Positions 7,595-46,758 of a DNA stretch of 64,000 bases are shown piece by piece. The notes under the pieces were generated by a model. It saw only the letters and a program-made list of their open reading frames with translations, made no database searches and was not told the DNA's origin. The DNA comes from an uncultured Gammaproteobacteria bacterium (GTDB lineage Bacteria; Patescibacteriota; Patescibacteriia; S139-126). Position numbers and translations under genes: made by a program. The stretch's first letter is position 1; every line of letters starts with the position of its first letter. The DNA lies in NCBI GenBank assembly GCA_964493305.1, contig CAZBLW010000001.1, forward strand, positions 384,037 through 448,036, given 5' to 3'.

Positions 7595-7630
7595 TGAAAA
7601 TATCAAATTTGTGTTAATATTCATAATATT

Positions 7631-8824: not shown

Positions 8825-9321
8825 TCAAAAAAGGTTTTACTTTGATTGAAGTTTTAGTAGTCATAGCTATTATCGGAGTTTTGAGTACTCTGACAGTAGT
8901 GGCTGTAAGATCTGCTAGAGAAAAAGCAAAAATTGCTAAAGCCCAACACGATATTGATACTATTTATACCGCTATGTCACAGTTGATGATTGATACTGGT
9001 GAATGGCCCAACCACCAAACTCCTGAAGAAATAAATACCGGTGGTAATAACGAAATTTGGGATTTAACAGCAGCCGTAGCTGGTATTGTAGTCACTGATG
9101 GCGGTTATTTAAAATGGGCCGGACCTTATATGGGCAGTATACCGCTTGATCCTTGGGGTAATAATTATTTTTTTGACACTGACTATTCTTTAAATTCCGA
9201 TGAAAAACCTTGTGCTGGCGGAAGCGGTTGTCACAACGGGGCGGTAGTTGGTTCTTTTGGGCCTGATGGTGTTGGGCAAAATGTCTATAATCAAGATGAT
9301 ATAATTAAAATTCTAAAATAA
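8821..9321 (+). CDS. type IV pilin / pseudopilin-like protein (prepilin N-terminal methylation motif)
   Basis: KKGFTLIEVLVVIAIIGVL is a class III signal peptide. A C-terminal Cys pair lies in CAGGSGCHNG. ATGA overlap with pgk. Confidence 0.8.
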   Translation: MIKKGFTLIEVLVVIAIIGVLSTLTVVAVRSAREKAKIAKAQHDIDTIYTAMSQLMIDTGEWPNHQTPEEINTGGNNEIWDLTAAVAGIVVTDGGYLKWAGPYMGSIPLDPWGNNYFFDTDYSLNSDEKPCAGGSGCHNGAVVGSFGPDGVGQNVYNQDDIIKILK

Positions 9322-9323
9322 AT

Positions 9324-10556
9324 ATGGTTAAAATTAAAAAGATCAAAGCTTTGGAAATTCTTGACTCTAGAGGCAACCCGACGATTGCCACTTTTTTAGA
9401 ATTGAGTTCAGGGGTGAAAGCATCGGCTTTGGTGCCTTCTGGGGCATCAACCGGCCGCCACGAAGCTTATGAATTACGCGATGGTGGTAAGCGTTATCAC
9501 GGTTTAGGTGTAACTAAAGCCATAAAAAATATTACCAAGGAAATTGTTCCGGCTGTTGTTAATAAAAATATTACTGATCCCATTGATCTTGATTATACTT
9601 TATGCTCTTTGGATGGAACTATCAATAAACATCGTTTAGGTGCCAATGCTATTTTGGGAGTATCTTTGGCTTATGCTCGAGCCTGTGCTTACCATTATCG
9701 TTTACCGTTATTTGCCTATTTAAGAAAAATTTATGGTTATAAGTATCACTGGCAAATACCTTATCCGATGATGAATGTATTGAATGGCGGTCGACATGCT
9801 GATAATGGTCTATCAATTCAGGAATTTATGATTGTACCAAAACAGAAGAAATTTGCCGATCGGTTGAGAGCCGGTTCGGAAATTTATCACAGTTTGAAAA
9901 AAATTTTACAAACAAAAAAATTATCTACAGGACTTGGTGATGAAGGAGGATTTGCTCCCAGATTAGCGAGTAATGAACAAGCCTTACAGTTATTGATTCA
10001 AGCAATTAAAAAAGCCAACTATAAGCCTGGTCAGGATGTTTGGTTGGCATTGGATGTTGCCGCTTCTGAATTTTTTAACGGACAGACTTATCAATTTGAA
10101 GATAAATCAATCGTTGCGGATAAATTAATATCAATTTATAAAAAATGGATTGCCAAATATAATTTACTTGGTATTGAAGATGGCTTAGCAGAAGATGATT
10201 GGGGAGGTTGGCAAACACTCACCAAAGCTTTGGGACAAAAAACTTTGTTAGTCGGCGATGATTTATTTGTTACCAATCAATCCAGATTGAAACAAGGAAT
10301 TGAAAAATCAGTGGCCAATGCTATTTTGATTAAATTGAATCAAATTGGTACTTTGACTGAAACCATGCAAACGATTATAGCGGCCCAGAAAAACAATTAT
10401 AAAGTAATTATTTCTCACCGTAGTGGAGAAACACCTGATGACTTTATTGCTGATTTAGCCGTGGCGGTAAGCGCAGATTATATAAAAAGTGGTGCGCCAG
10501 CGAGATCAGAAAGACTGGCAAAATACAATCGTTTATTGAAGATAGAACAACACTAA
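9324..10556 (+). CDS. eno: enolase
   Basis: N-terminus IKALEILDSRGNPT. Signature SHRSGETPD. Confidence 0.95.
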   Translation: MVKIKKIKALEILDSRGNPTIATFLELSSGVKASALVPSGASTGRHEAYELRDGGKRYHGLGVTKAIKNITKEIVPAVVNKNITDPIDLDYTLCSLDGTINKHRLGANAILGVSLAYARACAYHYRLPLFAYLRKIYGYKYHWQIPYPMMNVLNGGRHADNGLSIQEFMIVPKQKKFADRLRAGSEIYHSLKKILQTKKLSTGLGDEGGFAPRLASNEQALQLLIQAIKKANYKPGQDVWLALDVAASEFFNGQTYQFEDKSIVADKLISIYKKWIAKYNLLGIEDGLAEDDWGGWQTLTKALGQKTLLVGDDLFVTNQSRLKQGIEKSVANAILIKLNQIGTLTETMQTIIAAQKNNYKVIISHRSGETPDDFIADLAVAVSADYIKSGAPARSERLAKYNRLLKIEQH

Positions 10557-10589
10557 TGATTTTTGGCAAAATATGATAAGATAAAAACG

Positions 10590-10610
10590 AGGTTTTAAAA
10601 CCTTATTTTT
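10590..10610 (+). terminator. putative terminator (AGGTT-TTAA-AACCT + TATTTTT)
   Basis: A 14-nt perfect palindrome followed by a U-run after eno. Confidence 0.45.
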
Positions 10611-10617
10611 ACTATTT

Positions 10618-12198
10618 ATGAACAACACTACTACCAACCGAAAACCTAATGTTTTAATTGTGATTGATGGTTTAGGTATAGCCAATGATCAACCTGACAA
10701 CCCTGTGGAAATGGCCAATACCCCCACCTTTAAATTGTTGTGGGAAAAATATTACCACACCTCATTAGCTGCTGCCGGTGAAGACGTTGGCCTAATGCCC
10801 AATCAAGATGGTAACAGCGAAGCTGGTCATATGAATATTGGTGCTGGTAGAGTTGTTGGTCAAGATGTTTCCCTTATTAATCACAGCATAGCTGACGGTA
10901 CTTTTTTTAAAAATTCTGCATTTATCGCAGCTATTTCTCATGTCCAAAAAAACAATAGTAATTTACATCTCATGGGTTTATTGTCAGATCGACACTCGGG
11001 CCATGTTAACCCCAAGCATTTAGAAGCATTACTAACTCTGATACGCCAGCACAATTTAAAAAACAATGTGTATTTACATTTATTTACCGACGGTAGAGAT
11101 ACGCCCAAACACGCCGGACTTGGTTTTTTACGAACTTTGGAAGAACAACTTCAGCCCCATGAACGGATCGCCACTATTATGGGTCGGGTTTTATTGGATC
11201 GCAAAAAAAACTGGCTCAAGACCAAGGTAGCCTATGAAGCTCTGACCATGGGAATCGGTAAAATTGTTTCTAAACCAGAAAAAGCCATTCGCGAAGCTTA
11301 TGCCTGCGGTGAAACTGATGAATTTATCAGTCCGACCATTATCAGTTTGGATAACGATCCCAGTTATGGTCGAATTAATGATAATGATGCGATAATTTTT
11401 TATAATTTACGTTCTGATCGTGCTAGACAATTGACTAAACCTTTTGTTCAAGTAGAATTTGAAACCAAAAATAAAGATTCTTTTACGCGAAAAAAACTCT
11501 TGAAAAATTTGGTTTTTGTGGCCATGACTGATTTTGGACCTGATCTTGATCATGTTTTAACTGCCTATCCGTCAGCTGATATTTCTGGTACCCTGCCTAA
11601 CGCTTTGCGCAATCTAAAACAACTTTATATTGCTGAGGGTGAAAAGTATGCTCATATTACTTATTTTTTCAATGGTGGACACGATCGACCGGTTGCAGGA
11701 GAAGACAGGATTTTTGTACCTTCTCCAAATGTAGATTCCTATGATCAAACCCCGGAAATGTCGGCCAATAAAATTACCGAAATTGTAATTGATAATATTA
11801 AACAAAATCAATATGACTTTTATGCCATCAATTTTGCCAATCCAGATATGATTGGTCATACCGGTAATTTAGGAGCAGCTATCAAAGCTATTGAGTGTGT
11901 TGATAAAAATATTGGTCTTATTTTACAAGAGGTAATAGCGCGTGATGGTCTTTTATTTATTACAGCTGATCACGGCAACGTTGAGGAGATAATAAATGTT
12001 CAAACTGGCGAAATTGATACCGAGCACTCTAGTAACCCCGTACCTTTTTTTATTGCCACCAATCATCAGATTTATCCGACACACAAGTTACCGAACGGGC
12101 GCTTGGCTGATGTAGCACCGACAATTTTGTCAGCTATGAATATACCTAAAACCAGAGAAATGACAGGTAAAAATTTATTAGCACCGTCGAGTATATGA
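10618..12198 (+). CDS. gpmI: 2,3-bisphosphoglycerate-independent phosphoglycerate mutase (iPGM), copy 1
   Basis: NSEAGHMNIGAGR catalytic Ser motif. DGRD and TADHGN metal-site motifs. Confidence 0.85.
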   Translation: MNNTTTNRKPNVLIVIDGLGIANDQPDNPVEMANTPTFKLLWEKYYHTSLAAAGEDVGLMPNQDGNSEAGHMNIGAGRVVGQDVSLINHSIADGTFFKNSAFIAAISHVQKNNSNLHLMGLLSDRHSGHVNPKHLEALLTLIRQHNLKNNVYLHLFTDGRDTPKHAGLGFLRTLEEQLQPHERIATIMGRVLLDRKKNWLKTKVAYEALTMGIGKIVSKPEKAIREAYACGETDEFISPTIISLDNDPSYGRINDNDAIIFYNLRSDRARQLTKPFVQVEFETKNKDSFTRKKLLKNLVFVAMTDFGPDLDHVLTAYPSADISGTLPNALRNLKQLYIAEGEKYAHITYFFNGGHDRPVAGEDRIFVPSPNVDSYDQTPEMSANKITEIVIDNIKQNQYDFYAINFANPDMIGHTGNLGAAIKAIECVDKNIGLILQEVIARDGLLFITADHGNVEEIINVQTGEIDTEHSSNPVPFFIATNHQIYPTHKLPNGRLADVAPTILSAMNIPKTREMTGKNLLAPSSI

Positions 12199-13766
12199 AA
12201 GCACACACCCCCGTAGTATTAGTAGTACTTGATGGTTGGGGAATAGCCCCACCTTCCATCGGTAATGCCATCACCTTAGCACAAACCCCGAACTACGACA
12301 GTTTTTTATTGAACTATCCTTCTTTTAATATTCAAGCCTCAGGCGAATCAGTAGGTCTACCTTGGGGAGAAATGGGTAATTCGGAAGTAGGTCATTTATC
12401 CTTAGGGTCAGGTAAAATTTTATATCAAAATTTACCTCGTATTACTAGAGCAATTTCCGATGGTAGTTTTGTAACCAATGCAGCTTTTGAGCAAGCCTTT
12501 GAACACGTTAAACAAAACAATTCCAAATTACACATTATCGGTTTGGTTTCTGATGGTGGTGTGCATAGTTATAATGAACATCTATATGCACTTATTGAAA
12601 CCGCCAAATTAAATAAAGTGAAACAACTTTATATTCATGCTTTTTTGGACGGCAGAGATACAGCTAAAAATAGCGGTTTAGGTTATATTGTTGCTTTACA
12701 AAAAGTTTTACATAATGTTGGTTTGGGTAGAATCGCCACAATTTCTGGTAGGTTTTATGCCATGGATCGAGATAATCGTTGGGATAGAATTGCCGCTACT
12801 TATAATGCCATGGTATTGGGTCAAGCCGCGGCAAGTTATCAAGATCCAATAGAAGCAGTTAATCAATCTTATCAGCAAGGTGTATTTGATGAAGAGTTTG
12901 TGCCCACGATAATTTTAGATACACAGAACCAACCAACAGTAGTTGGTGACAATGATGCCATTATTTACTTTAATTTCCGTAGCGACCGAGCTAGGGAACT
13001 AACTAAAGCGTTGGTATTAAGTGATTTTAATGGATTTGCCAGGGAGAAAGTGTGTCAAAATGTATTTTTTGTAACTATGACCGAATATGAAAAAGATTTG
13101 CCAGTAACCATAGCTTTTCCTCCTGAGGTTGTTTCTATGCCCTTGGCTAAGGTGATAGCTGAAAATGGTGGCAAACAGGTTCATATAGCCGAAACTGAAA
13201 AATATGCTCACGTTACTTTTTTCTTCAACGGAGGTATTGAGAAACCATTTACTGGTGAGGAACATATCATGGTGCCGTCTCCTAAAATTTCTAGTTATGA
13301 TAAAAAACCGGAAATGTCTGCTTATGATGCCACCAAAAAATTATTAGCAGCCATCAATCAAGGTGATTATATGTTTTTATTGATCAATTATGCCGCGCCG
13401 GATATGGTGGCTCATACCGGAAATTTAGCAGCCACAATTAAAGGCATTGAAGCGGTTGATGATTGTTTAGGAAAAATCGCTGAAGCCGTATTGGGGCGAG
13501 ATGGAGTTTTGTTAATTACCGCTGATCACGGCAATGCTGAAGAATTAATCAAACTTCGTAGCGGCGAAATCGACAAAGAGCACTCGTCATCACCCGTACC
13601 ATTTTTGATCATTGGTAATCAATGGTTAGGGCAAGGAAGGTTAGCCAATAAGAACGAACTTTATGCTAGCACTCCGGTGGGAGTTTTAGCTGATGTAGCT
13701 CCCACAATTTTAACACTGTTGAATTTACCCATCCCTCCAGAAATGACTGGTAAATCATTATTATAA
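12195..13766 (+). CDS. gpmI: 2,3-bisphosphoglycerate-independent phosphoglycerate mutase (iPGM), divergent tandem paralog
   Basis: MGNSEVGHLSLGSG, DGRD and TADHGN motifs. ATGA overlap with copy 1. Confidence 0.85.
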   Translation: MKAHTPVVLVVLDGWGIAPPSIGNAITLAQTPNYDSFLLNYPSFNIQASGESVGLPWGEMGNSEVGHLSLGSGKILYQNLPRITRAISDGSFVTNAAFEQAFEHVKQNNSKLHIIGLVSDGGVHSYNEHLYALIETAKLNKVKQLYIHAFLDGRDTAKNSGLGYIVALQKVLHNVGLGRIATISGRFYAMDRDNRWDRIAATYNAMVLGQAAASYQDPIEAVNQSYQQGVFDEEFVPTIILDTQNQPTVVGDNDAIIYFNFRSDRARELTKALVLSDFNGFAREKVCQNVFFVTMTEYEKDLPVTIAFPPEVVSMPLAKVIAENGGKQVHIAETEKYAHVTFFFNGGIEKPFTGEEHIMVPSPKISSYDKKPEMSAYDATKKLLAAINQGDYMFLLINYAAPDMVAHTGNLAATIKGIEAVDDCLGKIAEAVLGRDGVLLITADHGNAEELIKLRSGEIDKEHSSSPVPFLIIGNQWLGQGRLANKNELYASTPVGVLADVAPTILTLLNLPIPPEMTGKSLL

Positions 13767-20801: not shown

Positions 20802-20829
20802 TTGACATCGTATTTTAATGTGTTACAAT
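20802..20829 (+). promoter_or_regulatory. sigma70-type promoter TTGACA-N16-TGtTACAAT (extended -10) for rplJ-rplL
   Basis: Near-consensus -35 and extended -10, about 140 nt upstream of rplJ. Confidence 0.6.
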
Positions 20830-20835
20830 ATTTTT

Positions 20836-20967
20836 ACACCGCAGACAATAGGTTCTATATTGATTAATGCAAGTTTTTGCGCCTATCGAGGTCACAATCC
20901 TTTTTTTGGATCTAGGTCGAGTACCAAGTAAAAGTCTGCGTTTTAACGCAGTTTTTTGTTTATATTT
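20836..20967 (+). promoter_or_regulatory. rplJ (L10) leader with terminator-like attenuator hairpin at 20936-20957
   Basis: About 130-nt 5-prime UTR. CTGCGTT-TTAA-AACGCAG plus TTTTTTG sits just upstream of the rplJ start. This is consistent with L10(L12)4 autoregulatory leaders. Confidence 0.4.
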
Positions 20968-32323: not shown

Positions 32324-32398
32324 TGGTACCGGTACGGGGAATCGAACCCCGATTACCAGGATGAGAACCTGGCGTCCTAACCGTTAGACGATACCGGC
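32324..32398 (-). tRNA. tRNA-Glu (anticodon CTC) with encoded CCA
   Basis: Minus-strand cloverleaf: GCCGGTA acceptor, D-loop AACGGTTA, anticodon stem CCAGG/CCTGG with loop TTCTCAT, T-arm CGGGG-TTCGATT-CCCCG, then ACCA. Confidence 0.8.
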
Positions 32399-37906: not shown

Positions 37907-37935
37907 TTGACAGAATAGCAAAAATTTGGTATACT
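37907..37935 (+). promoter_or_regulatory. consensus sigma70 promoter TTGACA-N17-TGgTATACT (extended -10)
   Basis: Perfect -35, 17-nt spacer and TGn extended -10, about 25 nt upstream of the 37963 start. Confidence 0.6.
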
Positions 37936-37962: not shown

Positions 37963-39084
37963 ATGCCAGATAATGAATCAATTTTAGAAAAAGTCATTGC
38001 CACTCAAATTAAGGAGGAAAAAGAGGTGTTTAACCCCAAGTTAATTGTGGAAAAATTAGCTGCTGGTTTACCTGATCGAGAAAAAAATGTTATTTATTTA
38101 CGTCATGGTCTCCAGGAGAATTCTGATAAATATACCTTGGAAGACATAGGTAAAATTTATAATATCACCAGAGAAAGGGTCAGACAGATTGAAGTTTCTA
38201 CAATTAAACTGATGAAAAAAAATTTAAAGGCTAACAATGACCTAAATCAATCTTTGTCAGTAGTAGAACAAATTATTAAAGATAGTGGCGGAGTTATTGA
38301 AAATAGTGAGTTAATTGACTTAGTTAAAGGTTCAATTTTAGAAAAAATCGAAACTAATTTTGTAGTTTTTTTCCTGGAGTTAATAAAAGACCAGTTTTTA
38401 CAAGTTAAAGATACTAAAAATATTAAAGCTGGCTGGCAGTTGCCTGGTTTTAATTTAGAAATATTGGAAAATATAATCAGTCAAACCGAAGAAATTGTCA
38501 AAAAAGCTGATAAATTATTTTCTGCTCACGAACTTTGGTTGGCTTTTAAAAATGGTGTTGATATTAAACAGTGGCCTCTAGATTTAAGTGAAGAAATATT
38601 TTTATCTTTTATCAGATTGTCTAAAAAGTTAAAAGTGAATCCTTTCAATGATTGGGGACTTAAACATTGGAATTTGATCACCCCCCGGAGAATGAATGAT
38701 AAAATATATTTAGTTTTGAAACACAATGAGCATCCTTTACACTTTAGAGAGATTGCCAAAAAAATAAATGAAGCCAACTTTGATGGTAAAAAAGCTCACG
38801 CAGCAACAATTCACAATGAACTAATTTTAGACCATAACCGTTACGTACTAATCGGCAGGGGAATTTATGCTCTTAAGGAATGGGGTTATAAACCTGGTGT
38901 AGTAGCAGATGTGATCGAAGATATAATTAAACAATCTGACCAACCCCTTAATAAAAATGAAATAATTGCAGAAGTTTTAAAGAAAAGATTGGTCAAAGAT
39001 AGTACTATTGTTTTGGCTTTAATGAATAAAAAAAGATTTACCAAAAATCATGATGGCACTTATAAATTAGCACAGGATCAATAA
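37963..39084 (+). CDS. protein with N-terminal sigma-70 region 4 (4.1+4.2) HTH fused to about 280-aa uncharacterised domain
   Basis: REKNVIYLRHGL is region 4.1. TLEDIGKIYNITRERVRQIEVSTIKLMKK is region 4.2. No region 2 is present. Confidence 0.5.
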   Translation: MPDNESILEKVIATQIKEEKEVFNPKLIVEKLAAGLPDREKNVIYLRHGLQENSDKYTLEDIGKIYNITRERVRQIEVSTIKLMKKNLKANNDLNQSLSVVEQIIKDSGGVIENSELIDLVKGSILEKIETNFVVFFLELIKDQFLQVKDTKNIKAGWQLPGFNLEILENIISQTEEIVKKADKLFSAHELWLAFKNGVDIKQWPLDLSEEIFLSFIRLSKKLKVNPFNDWGLKHWNLITPRRMNDKIYLVLKHNEHPLHFREIAKKINEANFDGKKAHAATIHNELILDHNRYVLIGRGIYALKEWGYKPGVVADVIEDIIKQSDQPLNKNEIIAEVLKKRLVKDSTIVLALMNKKRFTKNHDGTYKLAQDQ

Positions 39085-39086
39085 CT

Positions 39087-40607
39087 ATGGTGATTGACCT
39101 ATCATTTTTAAATTTAAATCCCAAAATGATTTACTGGATGGTATTAGTGGTGCTGAGTATCTTGGCTCTATTTTTTTTGTATTTTATTTTTAAATTCTTT
39201 ATTCAATTTTTTTGGTTACCAGCCAGAAAAGCCAAATATTTACAAGCAACTAAGTTTATCTTGTTGGCAATTGACATTCCCAAAAACAACGAACAGTCAC
39301 CCAAGGCGGTTGAGCAAGTTTTTGCCACTCTAGCTGGTACATTAAGCGGACCAAATTTATACGAAAGGTATTGGTTAGGCAATCACCAGTTATCATTTAG
39401 TTTGGAATTGGTCAGTCTGGAAGGCTATATCCAGTATATAATTCATTCTCCGGAAAAATATCGTGATGTAGTGGAAGCAGCTTTTTTTGCACAATATCCT
39501 GATGCAGAGATTATGGAAATTCCTGATTATGTGAAAAATTTTCCAGATGATTTTCCCAACGATACTTATGATTTATGGGGGACAGATCTAAAATTGGGCA
39601 ATAAAAATCCTTATCCGATTAGAACCTATCCCAGATTTGAACATACATTATCACAAGAAATAAAAGATCCTTTAGCTTCGTTGTTGGAAGTAATGTCACA
39701 CTTGAGACGGGGTGAATACGCCTGTTTACAATGGGTTATTACCCCCACTGGAGATAGTTGGAAATTACAATGTGAAAAAGAGGTAAAAAAAATAATCGGC
39801 GAAAAAGCCCCAGAAAAAAAAGATATTGGCTATTATATGACTTATCCGTTTTTATCTTTTATGAAATTTTTAGGTGATACCTTGGTTGTAAATGCTGAAG
39901 GTACCGCTGATAATCAGGCAAAGCGTGAGGATGCACCCAATAAAATGTTGTATTTAACCAGTGGACAAAGAGATGTTCTGCAAGGCATTGAAGAAAAGAT
40001 GTCAAAAATAGGTTTTTTAGCCAAGGGACGGTTTGTTTATTTGTCACGACGTGAATTATTTGATAAAAACCGAGGCGTAGCACCAATTATGGGTGGTTTA
40101 AATCAGTTCAATACTCTAAATATGAATTATTTTACCAAAGTGAAAACTACCACTACTACCGCAGATTATTGGCGTGTTGAAAAAAGAATCGCCAAAAAAC
40201 AAACTAAGATAATCAAAGCTTATAAACAGAGAATTGGTGATAGTAAATTTGGCAACAATCCTTTTGTATTGAATATTGAGGAATTAGCTACGGTTTATCA
40301 TTTTCCCGCTATGACCGTAAAAGCACCCTTAGTGAAAAAGGTAGAAAGTAAACGTTCCGAGCCCCCCGCTGCTTTGCCAGTTGATTTTTCTGCAGTAGAA
40401 GCAGATGAAGTCACAGTAGTTTTACCAGCTGAGAAGACTGAGAAAAAAAATGCAGAACCGATTAAAAATGATTCTGCTATGAATGATATTGTAGAAGTAC
40501 AAGTCGTAACTGGAGCTGATCATAAAATTTCTTCTCAGGAAGAAGTTTCTTTGCCCGTTGATGAGCAAGTCAGCAAAGGTCAACCACCAACTAACTTGCC
40601 ATTTTAA
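39087..40607 (+). CDS. hypothetical single-pass membrane protein with large soluble domain, 506 aa
   Basis: N-terminal TM MIYWMVLVVLSILALFFLYFIFKFF. The C-terminal third is low-complexity and acidic/Lys-rich. Confidence 0.5.
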   Translation: MVIDLSFLNLNPKMIYWMVLVVLSILALFFLYFIFKFFIQFFWLPARKAKYLQATKFILLAIDIPKNNEQSPKAVEQVFATLAGTLSGPNLYERYWLGNHQLSFSLELVSLEGYIQYIIHSPEKYRDVVEAAFFAQYPDAEIMEIPDYVKNFPDDFPNDTYDLWGTDLKLGNKNPYPIRTYPRFEHTLSQEIKDPLASLLEVMSHLRRGEYACLQWVITPTGDSWKLQCEKEVKKIIGEKAPEKKDIGYYMTYPFLSFMKFLGDTLVVNAEGTADNQAKREDAPNKMLYLTSGQRDVLQGIEEKMSKIGFLAKGRFVYLSRRELFDKNRGVAPIMGGLNQFNTLNMNYFTKVKTTTTTADYWRVEKRIAKKQTKIIKAYKQRIGDSKFGNNPFVLNIEELATVYHFPAMTVKAPLVKKVESKRSEPPAALPVDFSAVEADEVTVVLPAEKTEKKNAEPIKNDSAMNDIVEVQVVTGADHKISSQEEVSLPVDEQVSKGQPPTNLPF

Positions 40608-40610
40608 TTT

Positions 40611-42419
40611 ATGAAATTTAATCCCGAAGTAACCTATTTTGGAAAAACAAATTTTCGTAACCAAACACGAGAGTTTGGTATTAAGCGTGACGATCGCAGG
40701 CGTCATATGTATGTGATTGGGAAAACTGGTATGGGCAAATCAGAGATGTTAAAAAACATGGCCATTCAAGACATTAACAACGGTAACGGTCTGGCAGTAG
40801 TTGATCCACATGGAGAATTGGTTGAAGATTTATTAAACGCTATACCAGCCCAGCGGATAAATGATGTAGTTTATTTTAATCCAGCTGATGTTGATTATCC
40901 CTTGGCTTTCAATATTTTAGAATCAATTGATGAGCCACATCAGAAAAATTTAGTGGCCTCAGGTTTGATTGGTATTTTCAAAAAATTATGGGCTGATTCT
41001 TGGGGGCCACGTTTGGAATACCTATTACGCAATGCCATTTTGGCATTACTTGATTATCCGGGAGCTACTTTGTTGGGAGTGACAAGAATTTTGGTAGATA
41101 AAGATTATCGTAAAAAAGTTGTAATGAAAATTAAAGATCCGGTGGTGAAAAGTTTTTGGACTCAAGAGTATCCCAAATACAACCAACAGTTCCAGGTTGA
41201 GGCTATTTCGCCAATCCAAAATAAAGTTGGACAATTTTTATCTCTATCTTTAATAAGAAATATTGTTGGACAAGTAAAATCAACTATTGATTTACGTGAA
41301 ATTATGGATAATAAAAAGATTTTATTGTTAAATTTATCTAAAGGTAGAATTGGTGAAGATGCCTCGGCATTATTGGGCGCGATGATGATAACAAAAATTC
41401 AAATGGCAGCCATGGCCAGAGTTGATATTCCTGAGAATCAACGTAAAGATTTTTATCTTTATGTAGATGAATTTCAAAATTTTGTTACTAATTCATTTGC
41501 TGATATTTTATCAGAAGCGAGAAAATATAGATTAAATTTAATAATCGCCCACCAATATATTGCTCAGCTGGTGACCAGTGATTCAACTCGAGTAAGGGAT
41601 GCTGTATTTGGTAATGTCGGTACTTTAGTGACTTTTCGCGTCGGCGCAGATGATGCTGAATTTTTGGCCAAAGAATTTACTCCTACTTTTGATGAAACTG
41701 ATTTAGTAAATTTAGCTAAATACGATGTTTATTTGAAACTGATGATTGATGGTATTGCTTCCACTCCATTTTCGGCAACTACTTTACCCCCGTTGCCTAA
41801 AGACCAAATGAATGAAGATAAAATTATTAAAGTTACCAGAGAAAGATACGCCACCAAACGAGAAATTATTGAAGATAAAATTGCTCGTTGGGCAGGATTT
41901 GGTGATGAAGAAGAACCTGTTGAAAAAAAAGTACCTATAGAGAAAGAACGTGAACCTAAAAAGAAATTAGTTAAAACTGTGGACACTACATCTATTCAAA
42001 CTTATCCGGCCATTTGTAGTAATTGTCAAAAACCAATTAATCTAAAATTCAAACCAGATGGTATTAGACCGGTTTTTTGTCCTGACTGTTTAAAGTTGTA
42101 TAAACAACAAAAAATTTCCTTACCGAAAAACAATCAACCTTATAAAGAAGGTGATATAAAAAACTCTCAGTTAGTTAAAGCTGCTTTTACGCCAGTAAAA
42201 AATAAACCCAACAAAGAAATAATCATTGAGGAAGTTATTAAAGACACTCCAGCAGAAATTTCCTTGGCTGAAGCATTGGGTAAACTACAAATAAGTGAAA
42301 AAGTAGTAAATCCAAAAAAAACAAAAGATAACTCTACTGATTTTAAAGTAGCAGCTGATAAGATTAAACCCCAAACTAATAAACAGACTTTACAACCAGG
42401 TCAAAAAATAAAATTTTAA
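40611..42419 (+). CDS. soluble VirD4/TraD/TraG-like (HerA-FtsK superfamily) P-loop ATPase with C-terminal C4 zinc ribbon and Lys-rich tail
   Basis: Walker A VIGKTGMGKSE. Walker B LYVDEFQNF. ARKYRLNLIIAHQ and GTLVTFRVGADD resemble the TraG-D_C/DUF87 core. CSNCQ...CPDC ribbon. Confidence 0.65.
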   Translation: MKFNPEVTYFGKTNFRNQTREFGIKRDDRRRHMYVIGKTGMGKSEMLKNMAIQDINNGNGLAVVDPHGELVEDLLNAIPAQRINDVVYFNPADVDYPLAFNILESIDEPHQKNLVASGLIGIFKKLWADSWGPRLEYLLRNAILALLDYPGATLLGVTRILVDKDYRKKVVMKIKDPVVKSFWTQEYPKYNQQFQVEAISPIQNKVGQFLSLSLIRNIVGQVKSTIDLREIMDNKKILLLNLSKGRIGEDASALLGAMMITKIQMAAMARVDIPENQRKDFYLYVDEFQNFVTNSFADILSEARKYRLNLIIAHQYIAQLVTSDSTRVRDAVFGNVGTLVTFRVGADDAEFLAKEFTPTFDETDLVNLAKYDVYLKLMIDGIASTPFSATTLPPLPKDQMNEDKIIKVTRERYATKREIIEDKIARWAGFGDEEEPVEKKVPIEKEREPKKKLVKTVDTTSIQTYPAICSNCQKPINLKFKPDGIRPVFCPDCLKLYKQQKISLPKNNQPYKEGDIKNSQLVKAAFTPVKNKPNKEIIIEEVIKDTPAEISLAEALGKLQISEKVVNPKKTKDNSTDFKVAADKIKPQTNKQTLQPGQKIKF

Positions 42420-42422
42420 ATT

Positions 42423-43352
42423 ATGCACCAACTTACTAAACAGACCATAGCCGATATAAAAAATTTAAAAATCCAAGGAGCTACCAATGTAGTCTTAGCT
42501 ATAATCACCACTTTGGATAAATTGATAAAAGAAGTATCTTTTGAAAATTTTTTAGTACTAAAAAAATTTATTTTAGCTGAAACTTGGTTATTGGTTACTG
42601 CTCGACCAACCGAACCGTATGCTCAGAATTTGTACTATTTTTTGAATAAGAATATAAAAAATTTTAATCAACCAAAGGATAATAAAAAATTTAAAAGTAG
42701 TTTAAAAAAGTGGTTACAAGATTACCAAAATTATATTTTAAAAAACGATCTTAAAATTATAAGGTATGGCGTAAAAACATTGCGTCCCTATAAAAATATA
42801 TTAACTCATTGCCATTCTTCTACAGTGGTAAAAATAATCAAGTCGCTCCACCACACCAACAAAAAAATCCATGTGTTTGCAGATGAGACCAGGCCACTTT
42901 TTCAAGGTAGAGTGACTGCGAAAGAGTTACATCAGGCCGGTATCAAGGTAACTCAAATAGCTGATAGTGCAAGTGGTTTTTTGATTTCATCATTCTCAGG
43001 TCGGGATTTAATGATGGAGGCAATAGTGGTCGGAGCTGATGCAATCAAAACTAATGGCAGTATTATCAATAAAATTGGTACTTATGATATTGCTGCCAGT
43101 GCTTTTTTGAATAAAATACCTTTTTACGTAGCGACTAGTCTCTTGAAATTTGATTTTAAAAATCAAGTAAAAATCGAACAAAGATCTGATCGTGAACTAT
43201 GGCCAAATAAACCTGCCAATTTAAATATTCTTAATTTTGCTTTTGATTATGTACCGGCCCAGTTTATTACTGGTTTAATTACTGAGGTAGGTACTGTCAA
43301 ACCTAAGCAAGTCAAATCTTTGGTAAACAAACATTACCCATGGCTAAAATAA
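42423..43352 (+). CDS. ribose-1,5-bisphosphate isomerase (eIF-2B alpha/beta/delta-like family)
   Basis: GADAIKTNGSIINKIGTYDIA family motif. The assignment over MtnA rests on operon context with RuBisCO and AMP phosphorylase. Confidence 0.7.
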   Translation: MHQLTKQTIADIKNLKIQGATNVVLAIITTLDKLIKEVSFENFLVLKKFILAETWLLVTARPTEPYAQNLYYFLNKNIKNFNQPKDNKKFKSSLKKWLQDYQNYILKNDLKIIRYGVKTLRPYKNILTHCHSSTVVKIIKSLHHTNKKIHVFADETRPLFQGRVTAKELHQAGIKVTQIADSASGFLISSFSGRDLMMEAIVVGADAIKTNGSIINKIGTYDIAASAFLNKIPFYVATSLLKFDFKNQVKIEQRSDRELWPNKPANLNILNFAFDYVPAQFITGLITEVGTVKPKQVKSLVNKHYPWLK

Positions 43353-43957
43353 AAGATGATATCCAGTATGTAGTCTTTGATATTTATGGGGTAATCATAA
43401 CTGCTGGCCACAATATTAGGGATATATTATTTCCGATATTTCCTAAACACAAAAGTCATCGTTTTAGTCGTCGTATCTATCACTATTATGCAGAAAATAA
43501 ACTAAAACGAGCCAACTTTTGGTCACTACTGGGAAATTTTGATAGTTCTTTGGAAAATAAATTTTATGAACGACATCGTTTGGATAAAGATTTTTATCAA
43601 GTTATTGAGCAGTTAAAAAAGCAAAGTAAAAAATTGTATATTTTATCCAATATTCCTCAGGAATGGTCAGAATATTTAAATAAAAAGTTTAAGTTTGATA
43701 AGTATTTTTCTGGTACTGTTTTTTCTTGGCAAGTTGGTAAACGTAAGCCCGATCCAAAAATTTTTAACTATTTAGTTAAAAAATATACTTTACCAGTAGG
43801 TAAAACTTTGTTTATTGATGATAATATTGATAATATTAGAATGGCTAAACGTTTGGGTTTTAGGACTTGTTGGTTCAATCGAGATAAGATCGACCTTAAA
43901 CCCACTAGTGCCGATTTTATAATCAATGAATTAAAAAAATTAATAGAAATTATATGA
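43340..43957 (+). CDS. HAD-IA family hydrolase with variant motif I (DIYG)
   Basis: Motif I VVFDIYGVI, motif II YILSN, motif III KRKPDP, motif IV FIDDNIDN. Confidence 0.6.
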   Translation: MAKIKDDIQYVVFDIYGVIITAGHNIRDILFPIFPKHKSHRFSRRIYHYYAENKLKRANFWSLLGNFDSSLENKFYERHRLDKDFYQVIEQLKKQSKKLYILSNIPQEWSEYLNKKFKFDKYFSGTVFSWQVGKRKPDPKIFNYLVKKYTLPVGKTLFIDDNIDNIRMAKRLGFRTCWFNRDKIDLKPTSADFIINELKKLIEII

Positions 43958-45246
43958 AAAAATTTACCACTTCATATCAGGGTTTTATAGATCAAAAATA
44001 CAAACCCAATTTAGACAAAGAATTTTTAGTTACTTATCATGTTAAACCTACTCCGGGGCAAACATTTGAAACGGTTGCCGAGGCCATAGCTGGTGAATCA
44101 TCAATAGGTACTTGGACTCATTTGGAAACTCTCTCGGTTGCTACTAAAACAAAATTAACACCTCATGTCTATGTAGTTGATAAAAATCGTGGTTTTATAA
44201 AAATTGCTTATCCTTTAGCATTGTCTGAAATTGGTAATCTACCCCAGTTATTGTCCTTTTTAGGTGGTAATATATTTAGCATGAAAATAGTCGACCGTTT
44301 ACGTTTGGAAGATATTGAGTTTCCCAAAAAATATATTAATGCTTGCTTAGGTCCTTATCATGGCATAGCCGGTATCAGAAAAATAATGAATGTTAAACAA
44401 AGAGCCTTAGTTGGCAGTATAATCAAGCCCAAAGTTGGTTTGGATGTAACTGAAACCGCTGCGGTTGCTTATGAAACCTGGCGGGGTGGGGTAGATGTAA
44501 TTAAAGATGATGAAAATTTAACTTCACTGGTTTTCAATAATTTTAATGATCGCGTTGATCAATTAATAGCTACTAGAAAAAAGGTTGAAAAAGAAACTGG
44601 CGAAAAAAAAGTTTTTGTTTTCAATATAACCGCTCCTTATGATGTTGCGCTACAAAGAGCTCGTTATGTAAAAAAAAGAGGAGGACGAGTGGTTATGGTT
44701 GATATTGTCGCTATGGGTTGGTCAGCTATTCAAACCATCAGAAAACAAAATTTAGGCCTAATCTTACATGGTCACCGGGCGGGACATAGTATGTTTACCA
44801 AAGATCCTAGTCACGGGATGAGTATGTTGGTGCTGGCAAAGTTATCCAGACTTGCCGGTATTGATCAATTACATACCGGTACAGTGGTTGGTAAAATGGA
44901 AGGCACGGCTCATGAGGTTGATTCTTTGAATGATTTTTTGCGAGAGGATGGCGGAGAAATTGATTATTTAAGAGAGAATTGGTCAAAATTAAAACCAGTA
45001 ATGCCAATTGCCTCAGGCGGGCTACATCCCGGCTTGGCCGCGGAACTGATAAAAATTTTGGGTCGTAATTTAATTATTAATTTCGGTGGTGGTATTCATG
45101 GTCATCCCAACGGTTCTTTTGCTGGTGCTGTTGCTGCTCGTGACGCGGTTGAAGCAGCTTCTCTGGGAGCAAATTTACATACCTATGCCAAAAATAGACC
45201 AGAGTTAAAAACAGCTCTTGAGTATTGGTCTAATGTAAAAAATTAA
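43954..45246 (+). CDS. rbcL: ribulose-1,5-bisphosphate carboxylase large subunit, form II/III type
   Basis: GGVDVIKDDE, IKPKVGLD, ILHGHRAGH and the GG loop. Confidence 0.85.
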   Translation: MKKFTTSYQGFIDQKYKPNLDKEFLVTYHVKPTPGQTFETVAEAIAGESSIGTWTHLETLSVATKTKLTPHVYVVDKNRGFIKIAYPLALSEIGNLPQLLSFLGGNIFSMKIVDRLRLEDIEFPKKYINACLGPYHGIAGIRKIMNVKQRALVGSIIKPKVGLDVTETAAVAYETWRGGVDVIKDDENLTSLVFNNFNDRVDQLIATRKKVEKETGEKKVFVFNITAPYDVALQRARYVKKRGGRVVMVDIVAMGWSAIQTIRKQNLGLILHGHRAGHSMFTKDPSHGMSMLVLAKLSRLAGIDQLHTGTVVGKMEGTAHEVDSLNDFLREDGGEIDYLRENWSKLKPVMPIASGGLHPGLAAELIKILGRNLIINFGGGIHGHPNGSFAGAVAARDAVEAASLGANLHTYAKNRPELKTALEYWSNVKN

Positions 45247-45258
45247 TAATTAATAAAA

Positions 45259-46758
45259 ATGTCCTTTTTCTTAAAATCAAAAAAATTGGATTTTTCCACG
45301 GGAAATGAACCGGTGGTAGTCATAAACGATCAAGAAGCCGAATTTTATGGGGTAATAGCCGGTGATAGAATTCAGTTGACTTGGGATAAGCGTACCAAAA
45401 GAATTGCTGAAGTCAGAACAACTACCAGTAAAGTTAAACCAGGGGAGTTGGGTTTGTTTAAAGAGTTATGGAATAAAAAAGATGTACCAGCCAATGGTGA
45501 TATAGTTGAGGTGGAAATTGTTTCCCGACCACCGTCAATTCAAGCCATTAGAAAAAAGTTATTTGGCAAAAAATTGAACTATGAAGAAATTTACTCAATT
45601 ATCAAGGACATAGTTGATGATCGTTTATCTGAAATCGAGACGACTTACTATGTAGCTTCTAGCTATTTGCGTGATTATACTTTAAACGAACTTTATTACA
45701 CTTCCAAAGCAGTAGCTGAGACTGGCGAAATGCTCAATTTAAATGTACCGGCAGTTGATAAACACTCAGTTGGAGGGTTACCGGGAAATCGAACTACTAT
45801 GGTAGTTGTGCCAATAGTTTCTTCATTGGGATTATATATACCCAAAACATCTAGTCGGGCAATTACTTCACCTTCTGGTACAGCGGATACCATGGAAGTT
45901 TTAGCACCAGTAACCTTTACCATGTCGGAGATTAAGAAAATTGTAAAAAAAGTTAATGCTTGTATGGTATGGGGTGGAGGGGTCAATTTAGCGCCTGCTG
46001 ATGATAAAATTGTCCGTCTTACCAGGCCATTAGGAATCGAACCATATGATAAAATGATTGTTTCTATTATGGCTAAAAAGGTAGCCATGGGTGTTGATTA
46101 TTTGGTACTTGATTTACCGATTGGTCCCACTACAAAAATTCCGCAAAAAAAATTTGCAGATGAGATTGAAAAAAAATTTATGTTTTTAGGAAAAAAATTT
46201 GGTATGAAGGTTAAGGTTATTAGGACGCCATCTTTTGAACCAGTGGGTAGAGGTATAGGTCCAGCTCTTGAGGCTAGGGATGTATTGCGAGTTTTGCAAC
46301 AAAAAGAATTGCGACCGATTGATTTGGAAAAAAAGGCTATTAGATTGTCAGGTTATTTATTGGAATTAGCTGGTTACTGTAAGGTTGGTCAAGGTGCTGC
46401 CATAGCTCAACGTCAATTAATTAGTGGCGAGGCAGATAAACAGATGAAAAAGATAATATCGGCTCAAGGAGGTAAGGCAGATATTGATTCCGATGAGGTA
46501 GCTTTGGGCGCTTTAAATTATGAAATTCATGCTAAGAAGAGCGGTCAGATTAATTTTATAAACAACCGTGCCATCAATGAAATTTGTGTAAATCTAGGAG
46601 CACCAGGTGATAAGATTGCCGGTATTCATATGCATGTTCATTATCTTGACAAAGTAAGAGTGAAAGATAAACTTTTTACTCTTTATGCTCAGAGTCAAGA
46701 TCGTATCAAGCTAGCGCTCAAAGCTTTAGAAAAAAACGTAATTGTTGAAATTAAATAA
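45259..46758 (+). CDS. AMP phosphorylase (thymidine phosphorylase family, DeoA homolog with N-terminal extension)
   Basis: TP-family core DKHSVGGLPGNRTT. At 499 aa it matches the archaeal AMPpase size. Confidence 0.75.
   Translation: MSFFLKSKKLDFSTGNEPVVVINDQEAEFYGVIAGDRIQLTWDKRTKRIAEVRTTTSKVKPGELGLFKELWNKKDVPANGDIVEVEIVSRPPSIQAIRKKLFGKKLNYEEIYSIIKDIVDDRLSEIETTYYVASSYLRDYTLNELYYTSKAVAETGEMLNLNVPAVDKHSVGGLPGNRTTMVVVPIVSSLGLYIPKTSSRAITSPSGTADTMEVLAPVTFTMSEIKKIVKKVNACMVWGGGVNLAPADDKIVRLTRPLGIEPYDKMIVSIMAKKVAMGVDYLVLDLPIGPTTKIPQKKFADEIEKKFMFLGKKFGMKVKVIRTPSFEPVGRGIGPALEARDVLRVLQQKELRPIDLEKKAIRLSGYLLELAGYCKVGQGAAIAQRQLISGEADKQMKKIISAQGGKADIDSDEVALGALNYEIHAKKSGQINFINNRAINEICVNLGAPGDKIAGIHMHVHYLDKVRVKDKLFTLYAQSQDRIKLALKALEKNVIVEIK

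Follow-up and report, generated by a model that had tools for sequence, protein, structure and literature searches.

A probable AMP/pentose-bisphosphate salvage operon with a form III-c RuBisCO and an extra HAD hydrolase gene in a Patescibacteria bacterium

Results

The window, the whole 64-kb stretch of DNA analysed here, comes from a small, uncultured Patescibacteria (CPR) bacterium and contains a four-gene cluster. The four ORFs run in one direction and encode an e2b2/IF-2B isomerase, a HAD-IA hydrolase, a RuBisCO large subunit (RbcL) and an AMP phosphorylase (AMPpase) homologue, and are preceded by a further packed run.

37963..42419, + strand: three packed upstream ORFs, encoding a sigma70_r4/HARE-HTH protein, an unannotated 506-aa protein and a VirD4/TrwB-like ATPase (Pfam)
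42423..43352, + strand: e2b2-type ribose-1,5-bisphosphate isomerase homologue, 309 aa (PF01008 IF-2B, E 1.6e-61)
43340..43957, + strand: HAD-IA (variant 3) hydrolase, 205 aa (PF00702/PF13419)
43954..45246, + strand: RuBisCO large subunit, form III-c, 430 aa (RuBisCO_large_N and RuBisCO_large, E 7e-88)
45259..46758, + strand: AMP phosphorylase (DeoA-type, archaeal) homologue, 499 aa (Glycos_trans_3N/Glycos_transf_3/PYNP_C)

The original prediction of a four-gene operon at 42423-46758 was exact, both in its outer coordinates and in its four ORFs. It also described the genes as chained by overlapping codons, which holds for two of the three junctions: the e2b2 and HAD genes overlap by 13 nt and the HAD and RbcL genes by 4 nt (ATGA), but a 12-nt spacer separates RbcL from the phosphorylase. 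Translational coupling ties the HAD gene in between those for the isomerase and the RuBisCO. The tightly packed run begins before 42423, with gaps of 2, 3 and 3 nt along the upstream ORFs, the VirD4-like ORF stopping 3 nt 5' of the e2b2 start codon. Of the promoter-like sites in the region, the best lies at 37907-37935, and the upstream block is syntenic in five of the loci compared (L001, L002, L007, L009 and L024). These three ORFs and the operon possibly form the same transcription unit.

RbcL scored 512.5 bits against the form III model TIGR03326 (rubisco_III, cutoff 497.45), 269 bits against the form II-type model NF010002 (cutoff 489) and 164-214 bits against the form IV MtnW models (cutoffs 409-514). 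Its closest structures are archaeal form III enzymes, with 2cwx from P. horikoshii the best match (400 bits, 48% identity) and 42% identity to 6hun and 8dht; the II/III-type structures 9dyp (249 bits), 8vgs (243 bits) and 5mac (<241 bits) scored below many form I enzymes. Identity was 57-60% to labelled III-c sequences versus 32% to R. rubrum form II. In a neighbour-joining tree built without III-a, III-like, II/III or form I references, RbcL sits in the CPR clade holding all the sequences labelled "Form III-c" (bootstrap 98%), on a distinct sub-branch of 18 tips (98% support). We classify it from its sequence as a non-photosynthetic form III RuBisCO, subtype III-c. The exact protein is already in NCBI.

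The active site, which the original prediction had proposed to check at the carbamylation lysine and loop 6, is complete. Both lysines are kept, and E48, T53, W54, N106, K158, K160, K184, D186, E187 and H274 are present, together with R275, H278, H307, K314, S354, G355, G356, G378 and G379; the catalytic and substrate-binding residues are invariant among 50 clade members. As every catalytic residue is kept, the protein is not form IV, and its standing as a bona fide RuBisCO, also foreseen, agrees with its low MtnW scores. The segment from the loop-6 Lys to the Ser is 41 aa and therefore lacks the II/III or III-like insertion; none follows loop 6. The 29-aa insertion is indecisive on its own, because PER-type II/III enzymes also lack it (PMC5113843).

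The e2b2 protein passed TIGR00524 (196.8 bits), a model named for MTR-1-P isomerase, and scored 169.6 bits against TIGR00511, the ribose-1,5-bisphosphate (R15P) isomerase equivalog, far below the cutoff of 314. Its best PDB match was T. maritima MtnA (110.6 bits), with which it has the segment IPFYVA in common, and overall it resembles MtnA (35% identity to 1t9k over 231 residues of its sequence) no less than the archaeal R15P isomerases (R15Pi; about 30%). It keeps the catalytic Cys (THCHS) and Asp (GADAI) along with the equivalents of Arg65, Gln166, Asn214, Lys215, Ser137 and Lys240 of the P. horikoshii R15Pi, eight of whose nine side-chain ligand contacts are conserved. Ser137 and Lys240, ligands of the 5-phosphate, are Ala and Thr in MtnA, and the 8-aa MtnA insertion is absent from the protein. 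Arg22, a 1-phosphate ligand, is replaced by Gln. These ligand residues support the reading as a putative R15P isomerase. The Thermococcales AMP-activator residues R124, R190, K194, R229, W231 and D290 are not conserved, so activation by AMP in the same way as in Thermococcus is unlikely.

The phosphorylase scored above the cutoffs of two NCBIfam archaeal-type models at 527-537 bits (NF003338, 536.7; TIGR02645, 526.9) and just under that of the AMP_phos equivalog TIGR03327 (517.9 bits, cutoff 535). Its match to the T. kodakarensis AMPpase structure 4ga5 (353.9 bits) spans residues 8-488, including the N-terminal domain; pyrimidine-nucleoside phosphorylases reached at most 125 bits, little more than a third of that score. 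These matches support a predicted enzyme of the AMPpase type with its N-terminal domain.

The hydrolase has FDIYGV as motif I, without the Asp at +2 (D-x-Y for D-x-D), S103 as motif II, K136 as motif III and D160-D161 as motif IV, and carries a family-specific cap insert (GHNI..LFP.F..HK.H). Its AF2 model (pLDDT 90.9) has a generic C1-cap HAD fold. Orthologues form only nine clusters at 47% identity or above, beyond which come generic HADs at E about 1e-9. It matched the enolase-phosphatase model TIGR01691 weakly (22 bits), 2b0c/8pno weakly (direct match E 2e-6) and NF006991 at 43.8 bits against an equivalog cutoff of 295, and neither CbbY nor PGP proved specifically similar to it in sequence, PDB or structure searches. 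YihX, the E. coli alpha-D-glucose-1-phosphatase, belongs to the same HAD-IA variant 3 subfamily, but the window family has Tyr at +2, its own cap insert and a score far below the equivalog cutoff. Remote homologues of the hydrolase have D-x-G in motif I, as YihX presumably does; with D-x-G in the one and D-x-Y in the other, both would lack the Asp+2 general acid.

The order e2b2-(HAD)-RbcL-AMPpase is conserved in L001, L004, L007, L009 and L024, and e2b2-RbcL-AMPpase in DPANN loci. All four genes are under purifying selection, with dN/dS of 0.03-0.07 for RbcL and AMPpase and 0.10-0.32 for e2b2 and HAD.

Discussion

We read the operon, with a probability of roughly 85%, as the chromosomal "archaeal" AMP/pentose-bisphosphate salvage module of a Paceibacteria-like CPR bacterium. 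The AMPpase (45259-46758) would split AMP, and probably other NMPs, by phosphorolysis into free base and R15P, which the isomerase (42423-43352) would convert to ribulose-1,5-bisphosphate (RuBP); the form III-c RuBisCO (43954-45246) would then carboxylate RuBP to two 3-phosphoglycerates. The predicted module from AMP through R15P and RuBP to two 3-PGA, known from Thermococcus and inferred for CPR and DPANN, is supported. The 3-phosphoglycerate could feed lower glycolysis, for which genes occur at another place in the window.

7631..13766, + strand: lower-glycolysis genes, comprising PGK, enolase and two iPGM paralogues (Pfam)

These genes (PGK, E 4e-121; enolase, E 4.5e-103; iPGM_N plus Metalloenzyme, twice) lie about 30 kb upstream of the operon and are linked to it by pathway logic only. 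In CPR, transcription of the AMP-pathway genes has been detected in situ, and a II/III RuBisCO of the group is active (PMC5113843). We found no biochemically characterised form III-c enzyme, CPR e2b2 or CPR DeoA in the literature.

The HAD gene is a lineage-restricted extra gene, and we found no description of it in such an operon in the literature. Our guess is that it most likely encodes a Mg2+-dependent phosphatase of sugar phosphates, which would act on a pathway intermediate or side-product. That it is instead an unrelated passenger, inserted in the operon with no pathway role, we put at somewhat less than an even chance. Two related operons, L002 and L003, lack the gene, as does every DPANN locus, L005 and L006 hold a cytidylyltransferase-like gene in its slot, and its non-synonymous rate is about four times that of RbcL and AMPpase; the lack of specific CbbY or PGP similarity also fits a passenger. 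However, it occupies the same slot with the same overlaps in seven loci (L001, L007, L009, L022, L023, L024 and L025), start/stop overlaps are kept on both sides in every orthologue context seen, down to 47% identity, the catalytic motifs are invariant, dN/dS is 0.10-0.32, and a 31%-identical HAD fills the slot in the more distant L004. HAD phosphatases are also a known theme of cbb operons, CbbY being a XuBP phosphatase (PMC10212915). That HAD-superfamily enzyme is likewise genetically linked to RuBisCO and sets a precedent for "damage-control" phosphatases that serve RuBisCO, but the window HAD has D-x-Y in motif I instead of the phosphatase D-x-D, and CbbY structures were not among its PDB matches. 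The analogy is functional speculation only.

It is improbable that the RuBisCO serves mainly a PRK-dependent CBB-like or reductive hexulose-phosphate CO2 route and not nucleotide salvage. A PRK/RuBisCO pathway reportedly exists in methanogens (PMC5241800), which counts in favour of such a route. PRK homologues in some CPR genomes with III-c or III-like RuBisCO, those of Gottesmanbacteria, do so too (PMC6389311). Against this, no ORF of at least 120 aa in the 64-kb window has a PRK domain, although a PRK or another source of RuBP might lie elsewhere in the genome, and the RuBisCO shares an operon with the two AMP-pathway enzymes that would supply RuBP, an arrangement conserved in CPR and DPANN.

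A methionine-salvage module, with e2b2 as MtnA, the HAD as an MtnC/MtnX-like enolase-phosphatase and "RbcL" as a form IV RuBisCO-like protein, is very unlikely. The isomerase does match MtnA best and passes TIGR00524, HAD enzymes act in methionine salvage, and there is the weak TIGR01691 match; but RbcL has all the carboxylase residues and falls far short of the MtnW cutoffs, the isomerase differs from MtnA at Ser137, Lys240 and the insertion, and the fourth gene is of the AMPpase type and encodes neither MTA phosphorylase nor MTR kinase. Least likely of all is the same AMP pathway with the form II/III RuBisCO of the original prediction, which was wrong in this part: although that form was the first RuBisCO type reported in CPR (PMC5113843) and absence of the insertion alone does not exclude it, it is already contradicted by the form III and form II model scores, the structure matches (at most 249 versus 400 bits), the identities and the grouping with III-c-labelled sequences, so that of form III and form II/III, the alternatives the phylogeny was to separate, the former is upheld.

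The suggestion that the salvage operon is strong evidence for phylogenetic placement was overstated, because lateral transfer readily affects such genes (PMC6389311). A better basis for assignment to CPR is the window as a whole, which carries bacterial genes for cell wall and ribosome, together with the syntenic Patescibacteria/Paceibacter MAGs. From the literature, a nucleotide-scavenging way of life may reasonably be inferred.

The AMP metabolic or pentose bisphosphate pathway is said to have been described in T. kodakarensis by Sato in 2007 and Aono in 2012 and 2015. Its enzymes, which we take to be AMPpase TK0353, R15Pi TK0185 and form III-b RuBisCO TK2290, are presumably encoded by dispersed genes and not in one operon. 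The window has the same three enzyme families, predicted chemistry, conserved catalytic residues and AMPpase N-terminal domain, but in a bacterial host, with a III-c in place of a III-b RuBisCO and an isomerase that is about 30% identical, lacks the AMP-activator residues and has Gln for Arg22. The DPANN clusters (for example Aenigmarchaeota L015-L017) have e2b2, RbcL and AMPpase in the same order on one strand, and their e2b2 has the IQGA (Gln-for-Arg22) signature in common with the window. They differ in lacking the HAD, in a small Cys-rich membrane protein between RbcL and AMPpase, and in an RbcL that groups with archaeal form III references (91% clade) and not with III-c.

The closest parallel is in the Parcubacteria/Patescibacteria clusters of Jaffe et al. 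2018 (PMC6389311), the searched text of which describes CPR form III-c RuBisCO genes consecutive with e2b2 and deoA, gives III-c active-site residues as identical to those of form III-b, and makes no mention of a HAD gene. Host group, RuBisCO clade and the three pathway genes agree with the window; the labelled III-c RuBisCOs are only 57-60% identical to its RbcL, and the window has the HAD between e2b2 and RbcL. The arrangement is already known for CPR, and its only unusual feature here is the extra HAD gene.

Operon organisation

The four plus-strand ORFs of the operon have the outer limits, 42423-46758, that were originally predicted, and lie in this order:

42423-43352, plus strand: e2b2/IF-2B isomerase, 309 aa (Pfam IF-2B, E 1.6e-61)
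43340-43957, plus strand: HAD protein, 205 aa (PF00702/PF13419)
43954-45246, plus strand: RuBisCO large subunit (RbcL), 430 aa (RuBisCO_large_N, E 7.9e-36; RuBisCO_large, E 7e-88)
45259-46758, plus strand: phosphorylase, 499 aa (the three Pfam domains of class-II nucleoside phosphorylases)

The genes had been described as chained by overlapping codons. This is true of two of the three junctions (isomerase/HAD, 13 nt; HAD/RbcL, a 4-nt ATGA), but not of the third, where a 12-nt A/T-rich spacer separates RbcL from the phosphorylase.

Other genes adjoin the cluster on its 5' side, where a VirD4/TrwB-like ORF ends 3 nt before the e2b2 start codon. Three ORFs, 2-3 nt apart, occupy 37963-42419, immediately 5' of the operon:

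within 37963-42419: protein with sigma70_r4 and HARE-HTH domains, 373 aa
within 37963-42419: unannotatable protein, 506 aa
within 37963-42419: VirD4/TrwB-like ATPase with a C-terminal treble-clef zinc finger, 602 aa

All three are syntenic with the operon in five of the loci compared from other genomes (L001, L002, L007, L009 and L024), while in L003 and L004 the VirD4-like gene is close by but divergent. A promoter scan found 36 promoter-like sites in the region against a shuffled mean of 45, which is not above expectation; only the best sigma-70-like site, an 11/12 match at 37907-37935 (TTGACA-17-TATACT with an upstream TG), stands out, and it is suggestive at most. As this site precedes the three upstream ORFs, they may be co-transcribed with the AMP operon. 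A terminator scan found no terminator-like hairpin 3' of the phosphorylase gene, where an 86-nt gap is followed by uppP.

The RuBisCO is form III-c

The original prediction labelled the RuBisCO form II/III, but HMM scores, PDB ranking, percent identity and a tree all place it in form III. RbcL scored 512.5 bits against the NCBIfam rubisco_III model TIGR03326 (equivalog cutoff 497.45), with a full-length match over residues 11-425, and 269 bits against the form II type model NF010002 (cutoff 489). Its best PDB matches were archaeal form III enzymes, 2cwx first at 400.6 bits, then 6hun, 8dht and the 1geh/3a12 group. It is 48% identical to 2cwx, 42% to 6hun and 8dht, and 32% to the R. rubrum form II enzyme. 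The R. rubrum sequence used as a PDB query matched 9rub over residues 1-466 at 1075 bits. In that search 5mac, 8vgs and 9dyp ranked right after the form II enzymes, with alignments that break at about residue 359, and because of this ranking we took them as form II/III-type chains. The window RbcL matched 9dyp at 249 bits and 8vgs at 243, below many form I enzymes, and 5mac at less than 241 bits, the lowest score among the matches listed. A form II/III enzyme is thus ruled out by the NF010002 score, by the at most 249 bits to II/III-type chains against 400 to form III, by the R. rubrum identity and by the tree.

Form II/III enzymes most resemble form II and M. burtonii-type enzymes and often have an insertion of 29 aa or longer between helix alpha-6 and strand beta-7, and form III-like enzymes, which make up a deep separate clade, have insertions of 8, 11 or 24 aa there (Wrighton et al. 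2016, PMC5113843). The segment from the loop-6 lysine to the Ser379 equivalent is 41 aa in the window RbcL, as in the III-c reference, 40 aa in R. rubrum and 31-46 aa in form III structures, so neither the 29-aa II/III insertion nor an 8-24-aa III-like one is present.

A 100% identical protein is already in the public databases (NCBI). The nearest labelled relatives, at 57-60% identity, are a 'type III ribulose-bisphosphate carboxylase [Patescibacteria group bacterium]' and a 'RuBisCO long chain, Form III-c [uncultured bacterium]'. The window RbcL is form III, subtype III-c. We compared 64 sequences over 419 columns in a tree that was neighbour-joining, not maximum-likelihood, rooted on R. rubrum and built from Kimura-corrected distances with 100 bootstraps; forms III-a, III-like, II/III and I had no references in it. 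The tree places the window protein in a 50-member CPR clade that holds all five sequences labelled 'Form III-c' in nr (bootstrap 98). A phylogeny had been proposed as the way to tell form III from II/III, and this is the grouping it gave. Within III-c the window protein belongs to a distinct 18-tip sub-branch (bootstrap 98). Outside the clade lie three form III structures and the ten sequences from archaeal loci; seven of these ten form a separate clade with the three structures (bootstrap 91). According to Jaffe et al. (2018), III-c is a clade specific to CPR, with about 50% similarity to III-b and with III-b-like active-site residues (PMC6389311), and the identities of the window RbcL to 2cwx, 6hun/8dht and form II fit that description.

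All 19 conserved catalytic and substrate-binding residues are present in RbcL. They are listed here with, in brackets, the spinach residues that define a bona fide RuBisCO: E48 (E60), T53 (T65), W54, N106 (N123), K158 (K175), K160 (K177), K184 (Lys201), D186 (D203), E187 (E204), H274 (H294), R275 (R295), H278, H307 (H327), K314 (K334), S354 (S379), G355, G356 (G381), and G378 and G379 (G403/G404). They are invariant or nearly so among the 50 clade members. Both positions singled out in advance for checking are intact, K184 being the carbamylated lysine and K314 the lysine of loop 6. D186 and E187 correspond to the Mg ligands. Grouping with form IV proteins that lack active-site residues, which would have undone the original prediction, does not apply. 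Scores against the form IV MtnW models were 164-214 bits (cutoffs 409-514), and that against the OiaX model was far under its cutoff.

The isomerase and the phosphorylase

The isomerase passed only a broad subfamily model, TIGR00524 eIF-2B_rel (196.8 bits, cutoff 185.85), and fell below the ribose-1,5-bisphosphate isomerase (R15Pi, EC 5.3.1.29) equivalog TIGR00511 (169.6 bits, cutoff 314.1), a model presumably built largely on archaeal sequences about 30% identical to it. A residue-level test was therefore needed. Similarity to structures was near equal for methylthioribose-1-phosphate isomerase (MtnA; 1t9k, 110.6 bits) and R15Pi (3a11, 108.1 bits). As overall similarity did not separate the two, we mapped the ligand contacts of the P. 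horikoshii enzyme onto the window protein and 13 other e2b2 proteins whose genes adjoin RuBisCO in CPR and DPANN loci.

In P. horikoshii PH0208 the catalytic residues are Cys135 and Asp204, the 1-phosphate is bound by Arg22, Arg65, Gln166 and Lys215, the 5-phosphate by Ser137 and Lys240, and the sugar by Asn214 (PMC5789824). The window isomerase keeps 10 of 11 R15Pi catalytic and ligand residues, the exception being a change of Arg22 to Gln. This Gln, in an 'IQGA' signature, is found in all 14 mapped proteins, and Cys135, Asp204, Arg65, Gln166, Lys215, Asn214, Ser137 and Lys240 are kept in every one. MtnA, in contrast, has Ala and Thr at the positions of the 5-phosphate ligands Ser137 and Lys240, which fits its uncharged methylthio substrate, and an 8-aa insertion after the catalytic Cys; the window isomerase has both ligands and lacks the insertion. 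From these residues we conclude that it belongs to a divergent subgroup of R15P-type isomerases, distinct from that of Thermococcales. Methionine salvage by a form IV RuBisCO-like protein with MtnA is ruled out by the RbcL active-site residues and the 5-phosphate ligands of the isomerase.

The Thermococcales enzyme also has an AMP-activator site, composed of Arg124, Arg190, Lys194, Asn209, Arg229, Trp231 and Asp290. The corresponding residues of the window isomerase are T, G, S, N, K, P and T, so that only Asn209 is kept, and the site is missing in all the RuBisCO-linked CPR and DPANN isomerases examined. Since the activator residues are not kept, activation by AMP in the Thermococcales manner is not expected, and the window isomerase probably does without it.

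The phosphorylase passed NF003338 (536.7 bits, cutoff 434) and TIGR02645 (526.9 bits, cutoff 434.6) and narrowly missed the AMP_phos equivalog TIGR03327 (517.9 bits, cutoff 535). Its residues 8-488 align with residues 6-482 of T. kodakarensis AMP phosphorylase (AMPpase; 4ga5, 353.9 bits), whereas the best pyrimidine-nucleoside phosphorylase, 7m7k, scored 125 bits and aligned only from residue 94. The window protein shares with the T. kodakarensis enzyme an extra N-terminal domain, about 85-90 aa long, that precedes the nucleoside-phosphorylase-II core and that ordinary thymidine and pyrimidine-nucleoside phosphorylases lack. It is of the AMPpase type and is predicted to phosphorolyse AMP, CMP or UMP to R15P. 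The catalytic residues of RbcL, the R15Pi-type ligands and the AMPpase-type phosphorylase thus bear out the predicted pathway from AMP through R15P and RuBP to 3-PGA.

Conservation and selection

A scan of one genome per species gave 21 loci, and the window's proteins were compared with loci from other genomes by tblastn. In L001, L007 and L009 (L007 is titled Candidatus Paceibacter) RbcL is 87-90% identical to the window protein and the whole neighbourhood is syntenic, including the HAD gene. Across the operon, identity to these three loci is 87-91% for RbcL and AMPpase, which are better conserved than AlaRS, UppP and MnmA of the same neighbourhood, and 57-66% for e2b2 and HAD. The dN values among the four loci are 0.06-0.09 for RbcL and AMPpase, below those of uppP and the VirD4-like gene, and 0.16-0.34 for e2b2 and HAD. 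All dN/dS ratios are at most 0.33, with dS saturated (0.8-2.6; one pair incalculable), so that only the order of dN and the conclusion of purifying selection are usable. These ratios indicate that all four operon genes are under purifying selection, RbcL and AMPpase very strongly.

In the DPANN loci the order is e2b2-RbcL-(small ORF)-AMPpase. The small ORF of two Aenigmarchaeota loci (L015:7281-7703 and L016:7289-7678) encodes a Cys-rich protein with no Pfam match, which is probably membrane-anchored. L003 has a DNA N6/N4-methylase gene and a 185-aa ORF between RbcL and AMPpase (7315-8613). The first residues of the ORF, MPFYLKSKKL, duplicate the N-terminus of AMPpase and suggest the scar of an insertion. 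Two loci of other CPR lineages (L005:2242-2715 and L006:408-584) have a cytidylyltransferase-like gene (PF01467, an HxGH-type nucleotidyltransferase) between e2b2 and RbcL instead of HAD, and in L004, where RbcL is 67% identical, the slot holds a 31%-identical HAD. It seems that this slot is an accessory-gene hotspot.

The host and the rest of the window

The window contains a cluster of genes for lower glycolysis:

7631-13766: PGK, a pseudopilin-like gene, enolase and two tandem iPGM paralogues

The two iPGMs (526 and 523 aa) overlap by 4 nt, and the pseudopilin-like gene (8821-9321; T2SS protein G/N-methyl motif) is wedged between PGK and enolase. With these enzymes and a PGI-like protein also encoded in the window, 3-PGA has an encoded outlet. 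No PRK, which would be another source of RuBP, was found within the 64-kb window.

The presence of PBP, Mur ligase, MraZ/MraW, UppP, RpoA and ribosomal proteins shows that the host is a bacterium. The AMP pathway had been put forward as strong evidence for phylogenetic placement. This was overstated, because lateral transfer is known for genes of the pathway; placement is better supported by the bacterial housekeeping genes and by synteny with Patescibacteria MAGs. The MAG records of the closest relatives, L001, L005 and L009, bear the title 'uncultured Gammaproteobacteria bacterium'. Both the gene content and the homologues of these MAGs resemble Patescibacteria, and the title is probably a placeholder or a mislabel in the deposited taxonomy.

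Three other features of the window were noted. The alanyl-tRNA synthetase ORF (48811-50571) encodes 586 aa with tRNA-synt_2c and tRNA_SAD domains, a length conserved in L001, L007 and L009; alanyl-tRNA synthetases are usually about 870 aa. A ribosomal protein L10 leader (RF00557, 49.7 bits) lies at 20821-20967, upstream of rplJ/rplL. The only tRNA in the 64 kb is a minus-strand tRNA-Glu(CTC) at 32324-32398.

The HAD gene

The HAD family is narrow, with nine clusters at 47% identity or more followed by generic HADs at E ~1e-9. In every ortholog context examined (L001, L007, L009 and L022-L025) the gene lies between e2b2 and RbcL, and the called gene coordinates of L022-L025 give overlaps of 13-16 nt and 4 nt, as in the window. 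HAD-IA variant 3 phosphatases have the motifs DxDx(T/V) (I), S/T (II), K (III) and DD or ED (IV). The nucleophile Asp14, motif II Ser103, motif III Lys136 and motif IV Asp160-Asp161 are invariant. Against TIGR01509 the window protein scored 61.3 bits (cutoff 29.4). At the general acid/base position of motif I, Asp+2, all nine orthologs have Tyr16 (FDIYGV); L004 has Met there, and remote relatives have Gly or Tyr.

An AlphaFold2 model (pLDDT 90.9) has a C1-capped HAD fold, for which Foldseek gave L-2-haloacid dehalogenases, drimenol-synthase HAD domains and assorted phosphatases as the closest structures (about 15-27% identity), with 1zrm and 1jud at the top (TM 0.68-0.73, 19% identity). The predicted fold is confident but generic, and these matches give no clue to the substrate. 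L-2-haloacid dehalogenases have a D-x-Y-G-T motif I, and S-x-N-x-x-D in place of the Mg-binding DD. The window HAD shares their D-x-Y but has the DD of motif IV, which speaks against a dehalogenase, as does a TIGR01428 score of 57 bits (cutoff 125.4), and favours a phosphoryl-transfer enzyme instead. Homology does not make it a phosphoglycolate phosphatase (20-48 bits against models with cutoffs of 180-466). Nor does it make it a CbbY: there is no specific similarity, CbbY structures are absent among the matches listed, and the analogy is functional only. E. coli YihX, a glucose-1-phosphatase that also lacks Asp+2, is a weak match. Such a loss of Asp+2 would fit a substrate with a good leaving group, for example an anomeric phosphate.

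We tentatively regard the protein as a sugar-phosphate phosphatase whose substrate would be a by-product or intermediate of the pathway, which may be xylulose-1,5-bisphosphate (XuBP), 2-phosphoglycolate, R15P or ribose-1-phosphate. It could be a 'damage-control' phosphatase, clearing the misfire product or inhibitor XuBP or 2-phosphoglycolate from form III RuBisCO. A precedent for a RuBisCO-linked HAD phosphatase is CbbY, the XuBP phosphatase of cbb operons (PMC10212915). Alternatively, a C1-phosphatase might divert R15P or ribose-1-phosphate to ribose-5-phosphate for PRPP and nucleotide resynthesis. We think it unlikely, with perhaps one chance in four, that the HAD is fixed in the Paceibacteria-like clade as a dedicated fourth enzyme of the AMP pathway. 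There is a substantial probability that the gene is a passenger in the operon; in favour of this, tblastn found no HAD in the L002 and L003 operons, and against it, the slot and overlaps are constant among the orthologs.

Comparison with known AMP pathways

The organism in which the AMP pathway was established is T. kodakarensis. Wrighton et al. (2016) inferred it for CPR, found its CPR genes to be transcribed in situ and showed a CPR II/III enzyme to be active (PMC5113843). Jaffe et al. (2018) defined form III-c and found that no other form is co-located with e2b2 and deoA as often or as closely, the genes being consecutive in some cases and fused in others; they noted that the biochemistry of III-c remained to be characterised (PMC6389311). 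We found no later biochemical characterisation in the literature. The window operon is a clean further example of the arrangement described by Jaffe et al. At residue level it confirms a reduced CPR genome with a complete, strongly constrained AMP-to-3-PGA module on a form III-c RuBisCO, and its exact coordinates would allow the intact operon to be synthesised for biochemical work.

Two points go beyond the literature that we found. The operon-embedded D-x-Y HAD, whose motif I is atypical, may have an accessory or repair role for a RuBisCO outside the CBB cycle, and all the RuBisCO-linked CPR and DPANN isomerases examined lack the AMP-activator site of Thermococcales. Neither changes the known picture of CPR metabolism. 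If the HAD is a fourth enzyme, then together with the missing activator site it would mean that the CPR pathway is controlled otherwise than that of Thermococcus.
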